A stretch of DNA of 32,900 nucleotides from a virus: IMG/VR virus record IMGVR_UViG_3300017733_000025; one strand, 5' to 3'. The translations under genes were made by a program, and so were the position numbers. Shown here piece after piece: positions 4,485 through 32,900 of the stretch. The notes under the pieces were generated by a model. The model had not been told where the DNA came from. It did not search any database and was given only the letters and a program-made list of their open reading frames with translations. Each line of letters begins with the position of its first letter. The stretch's first letter is position 1.

Positions 4485-5732
4485 TTAAAAGTTAGTAATT
4501 TTTGCGAAAGCAGTCGGTCTATAGACGGGGAATCCCAATCTCATAGACGCTTTCATCATTACTTTATCTTTAGTAAAGAAATCGTCGTGGCTATCAGAAA
4601 TAGCAACTTCAATTCCTCGTCTTGAGACAACATGACAAGCCTCGCCACCGCCGAATCTACCTACAAGAACGTCCCCTGCTGAAATTGCTGTATTAGCAAC
4701 AACGGGAACACCCCAAATAGACGCGGTTGGAGCGCCTGACATCATGCCCGCTCCCATGAATAACGGTTGCAAAGCACCGCTTGTTGTAACTGCATTTGTT
4801 TCAGTAACAACGTCATTCCAATCGCTCGGGTGCATGAGGATCGCGTCGGGTTCCATGAATGCGTCTTTTCTGATTTCAGTAATTGCTTCGTAAATTTGTC
4901 CAATTCTCTTTAAGCTACCGCTATAAGATGAATAGTTAAACGAGTTAATTCCTGTAACGTTTAATACGCCTTTGATGATTGGCGCAACACCTGATCCACC
5001 AATTAGAACGTCGGATAATCTTAATTCAAGCATTGTTCTTAATCTTGAATCTAGATATCCCTGAACTGCTGAAACGTCAGCAAGTAGTTCTTCGGTTACG
5101 GGTATTGATACACCAAATTTTCTTATTTCTTCTGTTTTTTCAGTAAATGCTAAAGCAGATTCTCCGAAAGCAGATCCCTCTGCAACTTCTGCACCATTGT
5201 TGGTGAAAGTTGATTCTTCCAAATATTTATATTGGTATTGGTCTGTTTGAATTGTATCAAACAAATCTATAACGCTATTCGGATTTCTTAAAGCAGTCGG
5301 AACGATTAAATCGTCTCTAACTACTGCAGGTGGATAATTTGTTTCGGTTAAAAGAGTTTTACTTTCAAGAAGTGGATTCCACTTAATTTCTGAAGTAAAA
5401 CCTTTTTGTCCGCCATTAACGAATGCTTGAACAGATTTTGATTCAAAAAGAGCTTGCCCTAGAGTTTTCTTTTCTACGGTCGGCTCGTCATTGAATACAG
5501 GAGCAGAATCAACTGCTTTACCTTTTTCAACGTCATTCTCTAAATCTTGGATAGATTTTACAAGAGCGTCTTCGTCTCTTACTTCTTTTGCAAGAGTATC
5601 AATTTCTTCTGATCTTTTAGCCATAGACTCTTTTGTTTCAGCGTCCATAGTTGCGGGATCAATTGTTTTTAATTGCTCTAATGCGTCTTCTCTAAGATTT
5701 TGGAGTTTGACTTTTTTTTCATTTATGTTCAA
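4485..5732 (-). CDS. Major capsid protein, HK97 fold, with an N-terminal coiled-coil delta domain
   Basis: 415 aa. The charged coiled-coil first ~100 aa are followed by a capsid-like core. Canonical position after the prohead protease. Confidence 0.85.
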   Translation of the reverse strand: MNINEKKVKLQNLREDALEQLKTIDPATMDAETKESMAKRSEEIDTLAKEVRDEDALVKSIQDLENDVEKGKAVDSAPVFNDEPTVEKKTLGQALFESKSVQAFVNGGQKGFTSEIKWNPLLESKTLLTETNYPPAVVRDDLIVPTALRNPNSVIDLFDTIQTDQYQYKYLEESTFTNNGAEVAEGSAFGESALAFTEKTEEIRKFGVSIPVTEELLADVSAVQGYLDSRLRTMLELRLSDVLIGGSGVAPIIKGVLNVTGINSFNYSSYSGSLKRIGQIYEAITEIRKDAFMEPDAILMHPSDWNDVVTETNAVTTSGALQPLFMGAGMMSGAPTASIWGVPVVANTAISAGDVLVGRFGGGEACHVVSRRGIEVAISDSHDDFFTKDKVMMKASMRLGFPVYRPTAFAKITNF

Positions 5733-6544: not shown

Positions 6545-8455
6545 TTATTTTTTTCTCCGTATCTTTTTCTCATGGTATATAGTAGTGCAACGACAATTAA
6601 CAATCAATTCAATCGGCGCACCATACTTTGAGTCGGAGGGATAATCCATTTTATAACCCGCAACATTAAACGGCCTAGATCTAGCACGTCGCTGATTATC
6701 AACCGCAATATGTTGATCTCTAACTAAACCGTCTCGTCTAGTTAGCCAACTCTTTTCTAATCTTAGTCCGCTTTTTTCTGCCCCGCGCTCTTTTCCATAT
6801 TCTGCTAATGCTAAGCCCTCCGTTCTAGCAATTCGTTGCGCGCTACCTAATTGAGCCTTTGTAAGTCTTGTAGATAATTCATTTGCAATATAGTCGGTCA
6901 ATGCGTCGCCCGTTAATCCTAATTTTTGCGCCTCATCAAACGCTTTTCTAATTCCTCTTGATACCATATCCTTTCTTGTTTTTGACATTTCGGGAAGTAA
7001 TGAGGTAAGCCGATCATTGACAAAATTTATTGCCCCGCTATCTCTAAACATTGTTTCAAGCGGAATTTGTACGCCCCGACGTCCTCTCAATGGAAAAAAT
7101 CCGCTTTGTATGATTGTTGGTAATGGTTTTCTTCTTCTACCCCTACGAATTGCCTCAATTTCTTTTTTAGTTGCTTTCTCATCAACTCGGATTGTTTCGG
7201 GTAATAGCTCCGTAAATTGAAAATAATAAAAATCGGTAATCATTGAAAGGTATAAATCATATACGTCGGCTTTCCAATTTTTTGTGTTTGTATCAATAAT
7301 GTGATTTATTGCTCCCAATATTCCAATTTGATTTGGTGGATTGGTATTTAAAAAATTTATAATATCTTTTTTTTGCCTTTGGATTAATTGATAATATTCA
7401 AGCGTTAATGTAAAATCCCAATTTCTAAGTAATGCGTCAAATTTCCACCAATGATTGTCTTTAGATTCGGCCGATTCAAAACGATTTTCTCTTTCTTCCC
7501 ATTCAATTAGTTTTAATTGATTTCTACGTCGGACAATTTCTAAAACGGAATTATCTTTTTCATCACGCTTGTTCATTGCTTTAACTAATTTTTGGCTCCA
7601 TGATTTACCCGCGTCGCCACCCCATAGCGCCCAAGCAATGCGTCCGTTTGAAGGAAATCCGTCCTCGCCCTGCCTATATCCCTCTGCTTGTTTATCTACT
7701 TCATGTCTTGGAAAGTATCTTGCAATATGTCTTACTTTTTCGGGACTTGCAATTTGATTTCTTAATATGTATCTAGCGGATCCACGACCAACATTTGTTC
7801 CACCCCTGCCGTTTTCTTTTACCCATTCCAACCCGCGTTGCGCCTCCTCTTTTGCGCCTTTAGGAATTGTGAAGTCTAGATCGTCATATTTTCCTTTTAT
7901 TTCATTCATTGCGTCATCATCACTTTTTCTAGTTGATAGCGGGTGTGATGACGGAAGTAAATCTGTATCGTATGGCGTACGTCTAAATTTTAATTTTTGT
8001 AAAGCGTAAATAAATCCATTAACCCGCGCGTATGCCCATTGATCCGCTGAAGTAACATTACCTCTAACGGATTCGGGATTTCCTCTATATGCTCCAACGC
8101 CCCTACGGAATACGGCTTTTAAAACTGCTAATGTTGTTCGTTTTCTTTTATCGTCGCCATATTCACTATTATGTTCTTCTAGTTTGTCTCGTAATGCGCT
8201 CTCTACTTTTGCGCTTACCTTATATGATTTTCTAAAATCATTAATAATTCTTAATCTACCAACCTCAATGACAACATCTCTATCGGTTTGTTCATGATCC
8301 CCATTTTCTAAAATCGCCCATACGTTAATTGTTGCCGTTTCGTCTGTTTGATTTATTGATTTTATAATTCCGTTCGCAATTGAGTCATCTTGCGGAGGTT
8401 TCGGAATATTCCAAGAAACCGCTTGGCCGACATTTAGATCATCAAGACTCGCCAT
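6545..8455 (-). CDS. Minor head protein, SPP1 gp7 / Mu F-like C-terminal domain fused to a long N-terminal region
   Basis: The C-terminus ARTEG...RDQH...IELIVNCRCT matches the Mu F/gp7 head morphogenesis domain. The N-terminal ~450 aa carry other conserved-looking blocks (RRGVGAYRGNPESVRG...QWAYARV; RYFPRHEVDKQ...IAWALWGGD). Confidence 0.75.
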   Translation of the reverse strand: MASLDDLNVGQAVSWNIPKPPQDDSIANGIIKSINQTDETATINVWAILENGDHEQTDRDVVIEVGRLRIINDFRKSYKVSAKVESALRDKLEEHNSEYGDDKRKRTTLAVLKAVFRRGVGAYRGNPESVRGNVTSADQWAYARVNGFIYALQKLKFRRTPYDTDLLPSSHPLSTRKSDDDAMNEIKGKYDDLDFTIPKGAKEEAQRGLEWVKENGRGGTNVGRGSARYILRNQIASPEKVRHIARYFPRHEVDKQAEGYRQGEDGFPSNGRIAWALWGGDAGKSWSQKLVKAMNKRDEKDNSVLEIVRRRNQLKLIEWEERENRFESAESKDNHWWKFDALLRNWDFTLTLEYYQLIQRQKKDIINFLNTNPPNQIGILGAINHIIDTNTKNWKADVYDLYLSMITDFYYFQFTELLPETIRVDEKATKKEIEAIRRGRRRKPLPTIIQSGFFPLRGRRGVQIPLETMFRDSGAINFVNDRLTSLLPEMSKTRKDMVSRGIRKAFDEAQKLGLTGDALTDYIANELSTRLTKAQLGSAQRIARTEGLALAEYGKERGAEKSGLRLEKSWLTRRDGLVRDQHIAVDNQRRARSRPFNVAGYKMDYPSDSKYGAPIELIVNCRCTTIYHEKKIRRKK

Positions 8456-11641: not shown

Positions 11642-12070
11642 TTATTCCTCCTCTTGATCTATTACTATTTCTTTTTCTCTATCCAATGCTTGTCCGTCCG
11701 ACCATTCTAAATTGACTTCTACGGGTTTGTTTGGATCAAGATTAACGCTTAATCTATCTCTACGGCCGAACTTATCGGGATACTTGCGCTCTAATACCCA
11801 TGCGTCCGCCTGCCAATTACCCTCCTCTGCGACCTTTTCAATACGCGCTAAACGGCGCATAATGGCCTCTGATTCGGCTAGTTGGACTTCTTTCCAAAAT
11901 GATTTATAAGGCTCTATGTCCTTTTCGGCCTTTTGGCGCCATTTTCTAAATGTAGAGCTATCAATCCCCGCATAAAAGCAAGCGTGTTCTATATATGATC
12001 CAAGCCGTATTGCTTGTAATAATCGGGATCTAATCCCCTCGTCTATTAATTTATATGGTTTATTATTCAT
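11642..12070 (-). CDS. terS: Terminase small subunit (HTH type)
   Basis: 142 aa. N-terminal HTH-like segment (GIDSSTFRKWRQK) and ...ADAWVLERKYPDKFGRR, typical of small terminases. Upstream of terL. Confidence 0.7.
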   Translation of the reverse strand: MNNKPYKLIDEGIRSRLLQAIRLGSYIEHACFYAGIDSSTFRKWRQKAEKDIEPYKSFWKEVQLAESEAIMRRLARIEKVAEEGNWQADAWVLERKYPDKFGRRDRLSVNLDPNKPVEVNLEWSDGQALDREKEIVIDQEEE

Positions 12071-18525: not shown

Positions 18526-19077
18526 TCAAGCGTCTTTAATTTCATATCCAAAATTTTCTAATACGGCAAGACAAAAGTTTTCCAAATCCGCTAAATCTAG
18601 GCTTATGATTCCGCCCGTAGATCCGTCAGGCATTGATACATGAGCAAACGGTTTTTTTTCGGATCCAATTGCAATATGGTTAAAATCGCTTTGCCTTTTA
18701 CCTTTCATAAATACATTTACCAAAGGTTGAACTTGCTTACCGCTTTTAACTTCTACTCGTAATCCGCCAAGCCAATTCTCCTCGTGCGCGTCCGCTCCCG
18801 CAAACCTATTTGACGGAATTTTTAATAATTTTCTAGCTTGGTTTTGTTTTCGTCGGCCTTTTGATCTATTACGTCTGTTAATACATTTACGACATTGACA
18901 TTTGTTCTTTTGTTCTTGAGTAACATCACATTGGCCAATAGATCTTTTAGAACTATTTTTTTCGCTCATTGAGCGGGGTAAATTATTTTCTTCCCCTTTT
19001 CTACGTTTCCAATCACTATAAGTTTCATCAGGCCTTATATCAAATTCGTTTGGCTCTTTGCCTTTTATTTGTCCCAT
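18526..19077 (-). CDS. Putative PD-(D/E)xK-type nuclease / resolvase with a basic Cys-containing N-terminus
   Basis: GADAHEENWLGGLRVEVKSGKQ contains a D...E-x-K arrangement. The N-terminal CQCRKC cluster and Arg/Lys-rich segment suggest nucleic-acid binding. Weak call. Confidence 0.35.
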   Translation of the reverse strand: MGQIKGKEPNEFDIRPDETYSDWKRRKGEENNLPRSMSEKNSSKRSIGQCDVTQEQKNKCQCRKCINRRNRSKGRRKQNQARKLLKIPSNRFAGADAHEENWLGGLRVEVKSGKQVQPLVNVFMKGKRQSDFNHIAIGSEKKPFAHVSMPDGSTGGIISLDLADLENFCLAVLENFGYEIKDA

Positions 19078-19162
19078 TTAGAGCGGTTTGGTCGGATCTG
19101 CCCCGCCTCTTTTATTATGGAATAATAACGTGCGTCTATTTACACTAAAACCGCACTATTAA

Positions 19163-19786
19163 TTATAATGCGTTGTTTTCTCTAAGGAAATCCTCACAAA
19201 AATTTATTAGCGCTTTTGTTTTAGATTGAGATTTATTATCTAAATTATAAAGATCTTTATAACCTTTAATTGCTTTATCTAATATGACCAATTCATCTTC
19301 ATTAAAATAAAATGTTCTTGAATACATTGACGTCCGATCGCCTGTTTCTATATCTCCGAACGCGTCGTCAAATGTCATTGTTCCCGCTATCTCAAAAAGT
19401 TCTTTTTCCGTGTATGATATTGCGTCCAATATTGAGGGGTCGCTCTCTAGAGAACTAAGCATGTCGGCCAAAAAATCTTGATCTATTGTCCCCAATTCGC
19501 TTGTTCTATTATCCGCAATAGCAAAGGCTTTAGCCGTTAATTCGTCATCATCTGTAAAGACAACGGCTATATGCGACCAACCTAGTTTTCGTGCGGACTC
19601 CAACTGATGATTGCCCGATATAACCGTTCCGTCTTTAGTTGCAACAATTGGTTTTCGTTGCCCGAATTTGTCGTATGATTTTGCAATTGCATTTACATCA
19701 CCTCTACGAGGATTGCCGTCTAAATGTTTTAATTGATCTATTGGCGTTGCTAACTCTATAATTGATTCATTAATTTTATGATTCAC
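19163..19786 (-). CDS. ParB-like nuclease-domain (ParB N-terminal/sulfiredoxin-like) protein
   Basis: LDGNPRRGD...GQRKPIVATKDGTVISGNHQLESARKLGWSHIAVVF matches the ParBc domain pattern (NPR ... G-x-H-R/Q ... A-x-x-L-G). ATGA overlap with the upstream Mom-like gene. Confidence 0.7.
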   Translation of the reverse strand: MNHKINESIIELATPIDQLKHLDGNPRRGDVNAIAKSYDKFGQRKPIVATKDGTVISGNHQLESARKLGWSHIAVVFTDDDELTAKAFAIADNRTSELGTIDQDFLADMLSSLESDPSILDAISYTEKELFEIAGTMTFDDAFGDIETGDRTSMYSRTFYFNEDELVILDKAIKGYKDLYNLDNKSQSKTKALINFCEDFLRENNAL

Positions 19787-20490
19787 AATTTTTCTCCTTT
19801 GTACATTCTTGCTCCTATTTTTTTAATCTCCTCGTATGGTATTGGATCCATAGTTAAATTTTTTTCTAGTTCGGGTTTTAAAAACTTTATATATCTTAGT
19901 TGATATCCCTCCAATACTTCTGCTCCAACTTCATCACAAAATTTCTGCCAATTAAATGTTTTATTCGTTATATCAAAGAATGATCTGCCCCCGAGCATGT
20001 CCATTTTTCTTGTTGGCGCACTAGCGAATGTCATTTTATGAATTATCTCTCCGTTTGGAAATCTAGCCAATTGTTTATTTACTTTTATGTTGGTTAAAAT
20101 AAACCCCGTTGCTCTATAAATAGTTCCGTCCCCGCATTGAGTTCCGTCCGCGAACGTTATAATCCAATCTATTTCGGGTAAATGTTTTTTAATTAGTTTT
20201 AAAGTAACTCCAATAGCTCTTGATTCGCTGTTTTTTGGTAAATTATCAGATAAAACCATTCTATTTAATTCAAGAAAGTTATTCCATTTAGTATTTTTTA
20301 CTAATCCAATTATTTTTGTTTTATCTAAACTAGCGCCATATTGTAAAACTCCCTCTAGCCGATCATTATAAAAAACGCCAAAATGTATTTTTGAATTATT
20401 GACTATTTTACCCGAGTAATGATGACGTTTAATAAATGAATTAGCCCGTTGTACAGGGATCATTTTTATAACTATATCTTTAGCGTTCAT
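19783..20490 (-). CDS. Mom-like GNAT-fold acyltransferase (candidate DNA base-modification enzyme)
   Basis: ANSFIKRHHYSGK..., ...FLELNRMVLSDNLPKNSESRAIG...LIKKHLPEIDWIITFAD...GTIYRATGF follows, block by block, the layout I recall for phage Mu Mom and its homologues. No SD precedes the ATG. Confidence 0.55.
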   Translation of the reverse strand: MNAKDIVIKMIPVQRANSFIKRHHYSGKIVNNSKIHFGVFYNDRLEGVLQYGASLDKTKIIGLVKNTKWNNFLELNRMVLSDNLPKNSESRAIGVTLKLIKKHLPEIDWIITFADGTQCGDGTIYRATGFILTNIKVNKQLARFPNGEIIHKMTFASAPTRKMDMLGGRSFFDITNKTFNWQKFCDEVGAEVLEGYQLRYIKFLKPELEKNLTMDPIPYEEIKKIGARMYKGEKL

Positions 20491-20504
20491 AAGTTTAGTA
20501 TAAC

Positions 20505-20525
20505 AAAAAAGCGGGATAATCCCGC
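20505..20525 (-). terminator. Intrinsic terminator 14 nt upstream of the Mom-like ATG
   Basis: Stem GCGGGA/TCCCGC (6 bp, 3-nt loop) followed by UUUUUU on the minus strand. Confidence 0.65.
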
Positions 20526-20794
20526 TTATTTGCTTGGCTTGGATCCTACGTCGTACTCTATCATTTTTGCCTTAGGTTTCTTACGCCTTAGGTTACTTAC
20601 AAAATGTTGGCTTACTGTTAGTATCAGCAGTGGATTTCATATCCAATTTACCAAATTTTGATTTTTACTATTCTAGTTATCGGGGTTTTCTCCCCCGTTC
20701 TAAAGCTCTAGTTTCGCCTAGATCTTCCGCCTCGTGTCTAGTTTTTCCGTTGGGTTTTCGCCAATCTCCGAGTTCTCTAGTCATGCCTTAGCAT
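20526..20794 (-). ncRNA. Candidate ~270-nt noncoding transcript (or micro-ORF leader) bracketed by promoter copy 5 and a terminator
   Basis: No ORF longer than 35 codons on this strand. It holds four ACUAGA-initiated units, two similar hairpins with GAAAAC-type loops, and a tandem GUAAG-N-AACCUAAGGC duplication. Class unknown. Confidence 0.3.
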
Positions 20795-20800
20795 GTCCTT

Positions 20801-20828
20801 AATATACCAATCTTAGATTTATATGCAA
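20801..20828 (-). promoter_or_regulatory. Conserved phage promoter motif, copy 5 (TTGCAT-N16-TATATT)
   Basis: The minus strand reads TTGCATataaatctaagattggTATATT, immediately after the stop of the SLT-like gene. Confidence 0.5.
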
Positions 20829-20847
20829 GTATTTAACAAGATTTTTT

Positions 20848-21517: not shown

Positions 21518-22729
21518 ATGGTAAAAAAAGCAAAAAAAATAACCAAAAATAAACAAGAAATTCCTCATAATCTTGATTTAGGTAACAACTATTACCCGTC
21601 GGGTTGGAAACCAAAGCTTGAGTTTGATCATAATACAAACGTTGGAGAACTAACTCATATTCAACCACAATCAGACAATTTTAAATTTAATGAACTATTG
21701 GATTCATGGGGTTACGATTCAAACGTTTTCTACATAGAGGAGGATAGAATAAAATTCTCTACATGGGAGGCTCAATCTAAAGGCGGACAAGTAATTCAAA
21801 TGTTTGCTTTTAAGGCAACTATACGGAGAAAAAAACCTAAACATAACCAATATATAAAAAAGCTTGAACGTCAAATTGCAAACAAAAAGCCCGTAAAGGT
21901 ATCTCAAGAAGTTGGAGATCATGCTTTTTTCTTTTTTTGTGCCGATTGGCAGTTCGGAAAATCTGAATACAACGCCGAATGGGGAGCCGACGAAACCATT
22001 GATTATATTCGCAATGGAATTATTAAAGCTAAAAAACAAATACGGGACTTGAACAAATCGGGTCAAATAATAGACGAAATTTATATAATAGGTTTAGGAG
22101 ATTTAATTGAGAATTGTTACGGATTTTTTGACCACCAACCTTTCAACGTAGAGCTAACCCGTACAGAACAAGAACATCTAGCTCGTAAAATGTTGCTTGA
22201 AGTACTAGACGGATTATTAAAACTAGCTCCTAAAATTGTTATCGGAGCCGTTGTTGGTAACCATTCTGAATATAGATCAGGAAAAAATCAAGTATCAACA
22301 TCAAGACTAGACAACTCCGATACCGCAATATTTCAAATCGTTGGAGAAATTATTGAGGATAGAGAGAGATACAAGCATGTTAAAACAGTTGTGCCTAATG
22401 ATTTTTATTTAACAATTGACGTTAAAGATCAAAGATTAACTTTTTATCATGGTCACATGACGGGTGGCGGATCCAACATAGAAAATAAATTAATGAATTG
22501 GTGGAAAAATCAAGCCCATGCAAAAATCGTAAGCGGAAGTTCGGACATTTTAGTATCGGGACATTATCATCATTTACGAGTATTAACTGAACGTGGCCGT
22601 ACTTGGTTTCAATCCCCCTCGCTTGATACATCAAAAGAATTAGAGGCGCGTATGGGATTAACAACTTCACATGGAATATTAACATTCACCGTTTCAAAAA
22701 ATGGTTGGGATAATCTAAAAGTACTATAA
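21518..22729 (+). CDS. Calcineurin-like metallophosphoesterase (Mre11/SbcD-like nuclease candidate) with a ~140-aa N-terminal extension
   Basis: Ordered motifs GLGDLIEN, VGNHSE, FYHGH and SGHYHH match metallophosphoesterase blocks II-V. One of only two plus-strand genes. Confidence 0.7.
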   Translation: MVKKAKKITKNKQEIPHNLDLGNNYYPSGWKPKLEFDHNTNVGELTHIQPQSDNFKFNELLDSWGYDSNVFYIEEDRIKFSTWEAQSKGGQVIQMFAFKATIRRKKPKHNQYIKKLERQIANKKPVKVSQEVGDHAFFFFCADWQFGKSEYNAEWGADETIDYIRNGIIKAKKQIRDLNKSGQIIDEIYIIGLGDLIENCYGFFDHQPFNVELTRTEQEHLARKMLLEVLDGLLKLAPKIVIGAVVGNHSEYRSGKNQVSTSRLDNSDTAIFQIVGEIIEDRERYKHVKTVVPNDFYLTIDVKDQRLTFYHGHMTGGGSNIENKLMNWWKNQAHAKIVSGSSDILVSGHYHHLRVLTERGRTWFQSPSLDTSKELEARMGLTTSHGILTFTVSKNGWDNLKVL

Positions 22730-32732: not shown

Positions 32733-32900
32733 CTAATGAGTACCGCGTGTTACCGCACCCGAAACTTGCATATCTGCGCTAAAACCAACAACATCTCCTA
32801 CGGGAGAAGAAGTTGAGTATGAGGTTATAAATGCCTCGCCTGTATATTTTATTTTACCGCTTGCAGTTCCTTCGGGTGAATACTCATAAGAAAGCGAACC
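32733..32900 (-). CDS. Short tail-tube paralogue, C-terminal part (same gene as 1-366; 32778-32900 duplicates 1-123)
   Basis: The reading frame is continuous through the junction and ends ...GFSADMQVSGAVTRGTH with TAG at 32733-32735. Confidence 0.75.
   Translation of the reverse strand, partial: GSLSYEYSPEGTASGKIKYTGEAFITSYSTSSPVGDVVGFSADMQVSGAVTRGTH
32778..32900. repeat. Terminal direct repeat, copy 2 (identical to 1-123)
   Basis: See copy 1. Confidence 0.9.

Follow-up and report, generated by a model that had tools for sequence, protein, structure and literature searches.

A Mom-family gene overlapping a ParB-fold gene in a phage genome: a candidate two-subunit DNA hypermodification module

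The Mom protein of phage Mu alone transfers glycine from Gly-tRNAGly to the N6 of adenine in double-stranded DNA, the adduct then rearranging to 6-NcmdA (dA + 57 Da), and Silva et al. (Nat Commun 2026; PMC13219725) present it as 'a single viral enzyme'. Other base-modifying enzymes depend on a protein with the ParB fold. Phage T-dioxygenases of one subclass require a small cognate ParB, with both its nucleotide-binding domain (NBD) and its C-terminal domain (CTD), only when they act on double-stranded DNA; mutations of the NTP-site residues of this ParB are tolerated, and the dependent dioxygenases have a C-terminal extension and an insert of their own (O'Toole et al., PNAS 2026; PMC13229309). 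In the bacterial Dpd 7-deazaguanine system, DpdA requires the ParB-like ATPase DpdB (Gedara et al., NAR 2023; PMC10164549). A ParB-assisted phage DNA-modification enzyme is, as a kind of system, already known. Here we describe a Mom-family gene and a ParB-fold gene that overlap at positions 19,163 to 20,490 of a 32,900-nucleotide stretch of viral DNA (IMG/VR record IMGVR_UViG_3300017733_000025), the whole of which we call the window. The two genes very probably form a functional unit. Our favoured account, which we hold with moderate confidence and by analogy with the systems above, is a two-subunit DNA hypermodification module in which the ParB-fold protein would act as an adaptor that activates or positions Mom.

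An initial annotation, made from the DNA letters without database searches, had proposed that the two proteins could be a two-component base-modification or anti-restriction system. Both open reading frames (ORFs) lie on the minus strand where it had placed them (Table 1). Their overlap, which it had read as ATGA, is GTGA (19786-19783), and the ParB-like gene starts with GTG. The sequence AAAGGAG is found 7 nt upstream of this start, and such an overlap with an internal AAAGGAG is a classic layout for translational coupling.

The Mom motifs quoted in that annotation (FIKRHHYS, ELNRMVLSDNLPKNSES and WIITFADGTQCGDGTIYRATGF) are all present, and the kinship with Mu Mom that it had drawn from them was confirmed by profile and structure comparison. 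The window protein scores 185.6 bits with Pfam PF25680 (cut-off 27.1; E 1.1e-54), the match covering profile positions 2-200 of 202, it also matches PHROG 1384 'Mom-like' (E 6e-50), and in a phmmer comparison it matches the Mu Mom crystal sequence, 8BV8, with E 3.9e-25. Its AlphaFold2 (AF2) model has a predicted local distance difference test score (pLDDT) of 90.4. In a Foldseek search with this model the best match is again 8BV8 (E 2e-19, template-modelling score 0.64-0.74, 31% identity over 220 columns), while the next-best GNAT protein follows at E 7e-7. The window enzyme and Mu Mom thus belong to one Pfam family, share a GNAT fold with an insertion between core strands and are ~31-33% identical. 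Two PHROG profiles with other labels also match Mom, in its N-terminal half: 559 ('HNH endonuclease', 607 positions; E 7e-6) and 3339 ('homing endonuclease'; E 1e-4). A Mom-like GNAT half is therefore present in some phage proteins that have been labelled endonucleases.

The ParB-linked Moms differ from those of Mu type at defined positions. We compared 183 ParB-linked sequences with 105 of Mu/JD type, using Mu numbering throughout. The six Mu catalytic residues H58, Y59, R111, S124, D149 and Y159 are all kept in the window protein, and they are kept across the ParB-linked clade wherever it is aligned (175-179 of 183 sequences, the rest being gaps), bar one D149N. Five of them are essentially invariant in the Mu/JD clade too, where position 124 is serine (100 sequences) or threonine (5). 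Position 151, in contrast, is arginine in 105 of 105 Mu/JD-type Moms and serine or glutamine in 175 of 179 ParB-linked ones, with glutamine in the window; position 160 is glutamine in 104 of the 105 and arginine in all 179, the window included. Mu positions 151, 159 and 160 correspond to Q118, Y125 and R126 of the window protein, an offset of 33 at the first and of 34 from Y159 onward, owing to a one-residue insertion after FAD in the window protein. This apparent relocation of an active-site arginine might go with a change in donor, adduct or preferred sequence. Also missing from the ParB-linked clade are the first ~35 residues of Mu Mom, including a basic stretch that has been suggested to aid tRNA binding, and the dimer-interface residue W48. 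Its insertion is longer than that of Mu, and its C-terminal tail has a conserved GAxMYKGEK. In Mu Mom the helix-turn-helix (HTH)-like insertion (residues 175-209) is needed for activity (PMC13219725); the window protein has an insertion with short helices at residues ~144-190 that may be its equivalent, and Mu W181 is not conserved. The two clades can be sorted by the signatures FADERCG...YQA (Mu/JD type) and FADG[TC][QS]CGDG..YRA (ParB-linked).

The second protein has the ParB/Srx N-terminal fold, as judged from PHROG profiles, PF02195-bearing homologues and structure matches of its model, and this part of the initial annotation stands. The PHROG 723 and 620 'ParB-like' profiles match it with E ~1e-30, the N-terminal part of a PHROG methyltransferase profile matches it too, and Pfam gives no match at E<=1. 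Among its 554 homologues many have PF02195 and some are fused to PF01555 methyltransferase domains. Since a sequence search against the PDB returned nothing, we turned to structure prediction. The AF2 model has a pLDDT above 90 in the N-terminal domain and of 51-67 in the C-terminal region. Foldseek places KorB at the top and also matches Noc, ParB-CTP complexes, PadC and Srx (E 1e-5 to 5e-3), and in BFVD the model is matched by ParB/Srx proteins of viruses and by the N-termini of methylases (E 1e-12 to 1e-8). The protein's N-terminal domain has the motifs NPRRGD, FGQRKPIV, GNHQ and ADNRT, and the columns of NPRRGD, FGQRKP and ADNRT are invariant across 65 homologues. The Box II motif GxxR is replaced by G58-N-H-Q61, and GNHQ or GNHT is found throughout the subfamily. 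Mutation of the Box II arginine abolishes NTP binding across the ParB fold (PMC12704722). Because this arginine is missing, canonical nucleotide binding should not be assumed for the window protein, and here the initial annotation, which ascribed nucleotide binding and hydrolysis to the fold, went too far. With the partition proteins Spo0J, KorB and Noc the window protein has in common the N-terminal fold (Foldseek E ~1e-5). It differs from them in the lost GxxR arginine and in scoring 17.5 bits against TIGR00180 (partition ParB), where the cut-off is 58.45; no HTH or parS-binding domain family was detected in it, and PHROG and Pfam scans found no ParA-like gene among the window ORFs.

The short ParBs that stand beside Mom have in common a C-terminal domain of ~60 residues, with the consensus ..G[DE]K....MTFTLH.EQ...I..A....ETFGN.N.NGNAL..VV..W. 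A profile of this domain matched 165 ORFs in the loci of the ParB-linked Mom clade, all 165 of them positive for the ParB N-domain, and nothing in Mu-type loci. In the Mom-clade loci 48 ORFs have the ParB N-domain without the C-domain, and these are mostly methyltransferase fusions of 427-596 aa, plus fragments. Within the N-domain subfamily of the window protein, the C-domain is absent from 112 of 121 proteins and present in nine, namely the window protein, P0121-P0127 and P0219. In a blind test the last of these, P0219, proved to be followed by a Mom gene overlapping its stop codon and then by TerS and TerL. We sought the family of the C-domain in Pfam, where none was found, and with its profile in the PDB, where the best match (E 0.69) is at chance level. 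A search for homologues with the profile returned only short proteins and fragments of 43-112 aa, uninformative on domain architectures. The predicted strand-helix-helix topology leads us to guess that the domain may be ribbon-helix-helix (RHH)-like or similar to the C-terminal domain of ParB.

The linkage of the two genes was followed across relatives of the window Mom with 47-100% identity, taken from IMG/VR (82 locus identifiers, of which two come from one contig, giving 81 distinct contigs) and from bacterial genomes, one per species (80 loci). The sample consists of the 80 best matches per search, and clades of intermediate similarity fall outside it. Six-frame ORFs were called mechanically and scanned with a ParB profile that was built from homologues of the window ParB and iterated once. 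In IMG/VR we considered the loci with at least 500 nt upstream of Mom (n=73). A ParB-like ORF abuts Mom on the same strand in 63 of these, with a typical overlap of 4-34 nt; the rest are six ParB-Mom-Mom loci, two Mom-Mom loci cut by the end of the contig, the window phage with its ParB downstream, and one in-frame ParB-Mom fusion. In the bacterial genomes ParB abuts upstream of Mom in 78 of 79 assessable loci, and in the combined set a ParB-like gene abuts Mom in 149 of 150 assessable loci. Pfam ParB_N independently detects 46 of the 73 upstream neighbours but misses the window protein, and in the Pfam scan nine other upstream neighbours are second copies of Mom. The ParB profile had no matches among minus-strand ORFs and none in 123 control loci. 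These controls were 43 Mu/D108-type and 80 JD024-type Mom loci (47-100% identity; 119 of the 123 assessable), found with a Mu and JD024 alignment as seed, an alignment of Mu, JD024 and the window protein being too divergent for that use. Neither the ParB N-domain nor the C-domain had a match within 4 kb in any of the 123. The difference in ParB adjacency, 149/150 against 0/119, is highly significant (Fisher p = 1.5e-77). The two-component module proposed at the outset is strongly supported by this near-universal adjacency, which is kept where the pair has moved.

In most relatives ParB and Mom head the terminase/packaging operon. Among the largest ORFs within 3.5 kb downstream of the pair (n=61), TerL accounts for ~31, and portal proteins and ParB-N6/N4 methyltransferase fusions for 12 each. 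Psychrobacter phage vB_PmaS_Y8A, the one cultured example, has the order Q antiterminator, ParB, Mom-like protein (7125-7778, annotated 'hypothetical'), TerS and TerL, and the nearest other relatives of the window, whose Moms are 62-67% identical, have ParB-Mom-TerS-TerL. In the window TerS (11642-12070) is instead ~7 kb away from the pair, which has an SLT lysozyme gene on one side and Rad52-like and replication genes on the other, and no ParB-like gene is left beside TerS. A 91%-identical relative (L298) has the pair in the same relocated position and in the same order, Mom then ParB. The two genes have moved together, have flipped their order and still overlap, which speaks for a link between the two and not with the terminase.

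Several loci vary the arrangement. Two tandem Mom paralogues follow one ParB in six (L020, L025, L026, L041, L042 and L057), and two tandem C-domain ParBs precede one Mom in others (L023, L031-L033, L035, L044, L048, L050 and L062); such tandem copies hint at hetero-oligomers or multiple specificities. Natural ParB-Mom fusions, which we looked for as Rosetta-stone evidence, were found only in L034, where a single ORF (4743-5729) joins the first ~90 residues of the ParB N-domain in frame to Mom minus its first ~8 residues. This is apparently an in-frame deletion derivative of an L013/L038-type pair. Phage vB_PmaS_Y8A (OQ059336.1) has two Mom-like genes, the ParB-linked one upstream of TerS (L083 3391-4648) and a divergent one at the genome end (L208 2394-3158), which is annotated 'methylcarbamoylase mom'. 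In L297 (1633-4709), a ParB-Mom-TerS relative, a 102-aa SET-domain gene stands between TerS and TerL and an N6_N4 methyltransferase between TerL and portal, so that several modification genes are interleaved with packaging genes.

Close relatives of the window ParB also stand beside other DNA-modification enzymes. Four members of its subfamily that lack the C-domain (P0160, P0159, P0138 and P0158, on contigs L293-L296) are directly upstream of such genes, the neighbours being DpdA-like followed by QueC/QueD/QueE/FolE, PAPS-reductase (IbrA/DndC-like) genes and Tet_JBP. In these contigs the GNHQ-type ParBs overlap the start of the modification genes, and Tet_JBP genes are often just upstream. 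The window-type N-domain is also fused to N6_N4 methyltransferases. These phage fusions (PF02195+PF01555) have the N-domain subfamily of the window ParB, with up to 65% identity over ~130 aa, and often occur in the same loci as ParB-Mom, but they are covalently joined to their enzyme and lack the Mom-associated C-domain.

We suggest from sequence, predicted structure and gene context that the locus encodes the two subunits of a module for post-replicative DNA hypermodification. Its catalytic subunit would be the Mom-family GNAT protein, which by homology to Mu Mom would move an aminoacyl group (glycine carried by a charged tRNA being the likeliest) to adenine N6 in double-stranded phage DNA; this modification would protect the DNA from restriction. 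The ParB-fold protein would be a dedicated partner, probably dimeric, that docks on Mom through the Mom-specific C-terminal domain and either activates the enzyme or positions it on duplex DNA. Because the Box II arginine is missing, this partner may be a scaffold rather than a classical CTP switch. The chemistry of the pair, called uncharacterised in the initial annotation, can now be framed by what has been described for Mu Mom (PMC13219725). The role of the partner, for which the same word had been used, has for Mom a concrete model by analogy, drawn from experimental precedents of ParB activators (PMC13229309, PMC10164549). It is likewise by analogy that we infer a physical interaction of the two proteins, activation, the adduct chemistry and an anti-restriction function.

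The window pair may be the GNAT counterpart of the ParB-dependent T-dioxygenases and of DpdA/DpdB. One comparison is with 5mYOX176 and ParB176 of O'Toole et al. In both cases the enzyme family splits into stand-alone and ParB-linked subclasses, the ParB-linked enzymes have subclass-specific features including a C-terminal extension, and the small ParB partner combines an N-terminal ParB fold with a C-terminal domain and shows no obvious domain for DNA binding; Tet_JBP genes, moreover, have close N-domain relatives of the window ParB beside them. Two features of ParB-activated modules, conserved co-oriented adjacency and a split of the enzyme family into partner-linked and stand-alone subclasses, are thus found here as well. 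The systems differ in that 5mYOX176 is a Fe/2-oxoglutarate dioxygenase acting on thymine and Mom a GNAT protein acting on adenine, and in that the Mom-linked ParBs have a C-terminal domain from a sequence family of its own, specific to Mom. DpdA/DpdB resembles the pair in that a base-modifying enzyme acting on duplex DNA needs a ParB-fold protein, and GNHQ-type ParB genes abut DpdA-like and QueC/D/E clusters in phage contigs. DpdB, however, is larger, is an ATPase whose ATP hydrolysis is required, and has a DGQQR motif and a C-terminal domain like that of SspE, whereas the window ParB is without the GxxR-type arginine. Mu Mom acts alone, com precedes mom and the gene lies at the genome end, in contrast to the window enzyme with its ParB-linked clade.

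Several observations weigh against a two-subunit module. Mu Mom works alone in vitro, and two metagenomic Mom homologues (Homolog A and Homolog B, which could belong to either clade) are active alone in E. coli (PMC13219725), so that the Mom fold does not intrinsically require a partner. In the T-dioxygenase system no stable complex of enzyme and ParB was trapped (PMC13229309). R151A Mu Mom is inactive (PMC13219725), and the loss of R151 from the ParB-linked Moms leaves room for an activity or specificity unlike that of Mu Mom. Conserved adjacency of Mom and ParB could reflect co-regulation and not a shared reaction. The window's own C-domain is matched weakly. In a non-circular profile, from which the window protein and its nearest relatives had been removed, the 91%-identical P0123 is matched with E 8e-5, but the window's own C-region, although co-linear over the full domain, reaches only E 0.17, from which we conclude that the window copy is divergent; the AF2 model also has low confidence over this domain (pLDDT 51-67).

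A bolder version of the favoured account goes further, and we offer it tentatively, as the less likely form. The ParB-linked Moms may be an obligate two-subunit class of aminoacyl- or acyltransferases, switched on by a C-terminal adaptor carried on a nucleotide-independent ParB scaffold, in which the site with arginine moved from position 151 to 160 would install an adduct other than 6-NcmdA or use another donor or sequence context. If this is true, dependence on ParB would be a general control principle for hypermodification enzymes across the dioxygenase, transglycosylase, PAPS-reductase-like and GNAT folds.

Four other explanations have to be weighed. The ParB-fold protein may regulate Mom in the place of Com, by repressing it, by setting its timing or as an antidote to an enzyme potentially toxic to the host. 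In Mu and D108 the small regulator gene com overlaps the start of mom, and in most of our loci ParB has the same upstream, overlapping position; KorB, the top structural match, is a ParB-fold transcriptional repressor and DndB a ParB-like one, and O'Toole et al. (PMC13229309) raise timing control as a possible ParB role too. We nevertheless regard this as rather unlikely. The reversed order in the window means that Mom can do without translational coupling from upstream, no HTH or RHH family could be recognised in the ParB, and a search for parS-like or operator repeats yielded only one 2x16-nt tandem repeat, not significant genome-wide and located in a spacer that L298 lacks.

That the ParB is instead a packaging or genome-handling protein of the terminase region, with Mom merely landing in a hot spot and no joint action, is in our judgement distinctly improbable. 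It would explain why most relatives have the pair directly upstream of TerS/TerL or portal (~31 TerL and 12 portal of 61), and the 'ParB-Tls locus', described by Aravind's group (Iyer et al. 2013, as cited in PMC4738411), is given as a home of phage DNA-modification genes. Against it, the window and L298 have the pair ~7 kb from the terminase with its order inverted and its overlap kept, and the window has no ParB-like gene beside TerS. The C-domain moreover tracks Mom and not the terminase, the ParB-methyltransferase fusions that share these loci being without it, and no ParB is found in Mom loci of Mu type.

The annotation as a 'ParB-like nuclease domain', used for relatives historically and adopted in the initial annotation, suggests a third explanation, a restriction-modification-like module in which ParB would be a nuclease against unmodified host or competitor DNA and Mom would protect the phage genome. 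The Mom-like half in PHROG profiles labelled as HNH or homing endonucleases would fit, as would SspE, a ParB-fold NTPase and nickase. The nicking motif of SspE, however, sits in a separate C-terminal domain, and no nuclease family or motif was detected in the 207-aa protein, so that nothing supports the nuclease activity implied by the label. The pair is also widespread in prophages of many phyla, where a DNase against unmodified DNA would be hazardous, and the characterised phage ParB partner showed no such role (PMC13229309). We consider this explanation very improbable. Finally, that the adjacency is inherited synteny within one phage lineage, devoid of functional meaning, is hardly credible: all sampled Moms do form one clade (47-100% identical), but they occur in varied phage backbones with at least five TerL families and several portal families and in hosts across Bacillota, Spirochaetota (Treponema), Bacteroidota (Bacteroidales), Pseudomonadota, Acidobacteriota and others, their ParB N-domains are only ~17-30% identical and fall into the motif classes GHxR, GNMR, GNHQ and GNGT, the order is inverted in the window and the flanking genes are not conserved.

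A large branch of Mom, found in phages and prophages across many bacterial phyla, practically never occurs without a dedicated ParB gene beside it. Our results indicate that Mom can be regarded as a single viral enzyme in the Mu-type branch only, and that one whole branch probably works as a two-protein machine, unlike Mu Mom. Seen alongside the T-dioxygenases and DpdAB, the ParB fold begins to resemble an accessory subunit in general use among enzymes that have to get at bases within duplex DNA. In full-text searches no paper on the Mom-ParB combination was found, the Iyer et al. 2013 survey, which possibly lists Mom, being outside this check, and the pair is unmentioned in the 2026 Mom paper, the 2026 ParB-dioxygenase paper and the 2025 ParB-fold survey. 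What appears to be new is a system of this kind with Mom as its enzyme, the near-obligate pairing, the clean separation from Mu-type Moms, the dedicated C-domain and the R151/Q160 swap. The signatures described here (the 151/160 region, and MTFTLH.EQ...ETFGN.N.NGNAL in the C-domain) can be used to sort several thousand Mom homologues into stand-alone and partnered forms, and heterologous screens in which Mom homologues are expressed alone may give false negatives. The phage vB_PmaS_Y8A is a ready experimental system for a ParB-linked Mom, and pairs of this kind may offer new reagents for DNA-modification biotechnology as well as insight into how phages evade restriction.

The window ends in an exact direct repeat of 123 nt (1-123 and 32778-32900) and is, because of this, taken as a complete, circularly assembled phage genome of ~32.8 kb. 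PHROG and Pfam scans identified TerS, TerL, portal, MuF-like, protease, capsid, tail and tape-measure proteins, together with a replication initiator, a Rad52-like annealing protein, an SLT lysozyme and an exonuclease. The gene set is siphovirus-like, and nearly every gene is on the minus strand. The phage has no close cultured relative: its best TerL match, to T5-like phages, is ~27% identical, and a DNA-level search with the gene pair against 50,697 phage records gave no match. The earlier statement that the genome has no methyltransferase agrees with our scans, in which none was found among ORFs of at least 130 aa, to the sensitivity of the PHROG and Pfam profiles, the ORFs left unscanned all being shorter than 125 aa. 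There are no tRNA genes in the window. The features of the locus are collected in Table 1.

Table 1. Positions of the Mom and ParB genes, their domains and nearby signals in the window
Feature	Position	Strand	Remarks
Mom-family GNAT gene, ParB-linked clade	19783..20490	-	235 aa, ATG start
ParB/Srx-fold partner gene	19163..19786	-	207 aa, GTG start
ParB N-terminal (ParB/Srx, 'NBD') domain, aa 1-100	19487..19786	-	invariant motif columns
Mom-associated C-terminal domain, divergent copy, aa 144-207	19166..19357	-	profile; predicted strand then two helices
GTGA start/stop overlap (translational coupling)	19783..19786	-	read from sequence
AAAGGAG ribosome-binding site of ParB gene, inside the end of the Mom gene	19794..19800	-	read from sequence
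GC-rich hairpin and T-run directly upstream of Mom start, terminator-like	20509..20527	-	terminator scan, inverted repeat I4
Weak hairpin with T-rich tail over ParB stop codon, 3 GC pairs only	19152..19172	-	terminator scan

The only sizeable plus-strand gene of the window is that of the exonuclease (403 aa, 21518-22729; PHROG 284, E 3e-51). Directly downstream of the ParB gene, on the minus strand, is an ORF for a basic, cysteine-containing protein of 183 aa (18526-19077) for which Pfam, PHROGs and PADLOC gave no match. This ORF is kept at the same position in L298 and in L001, which is the window's own phage, and is absent from the other Mom loci. On the other side of the pair, the SLT and Mom genes are separated by a non-coding spacer of 357 nt (20491-20847, minus strand), ~330 nt longer than in the 91%-related L298, where it is 26 nt. 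This spacer has a possible ORF of 35 codons, the 2x16-nt tandem repeat mentioned above (20569-20600, GCCTTAGGTT[T/A]CTTAC) and, next to the Mom ATG, the strong hairpin with T-run of Table 1. A search for RNA elements near Mom, such as a T-box or a glycine-responsive leader, gave no Rfam family at threshold. The Mom gene of the window is without a Shine-Dalgarno sequence. Just upstream of its ATG is TGTTATACT, which is kept in L298 and would be consistent with an extended -10 element and with transcription that leaves no leader.

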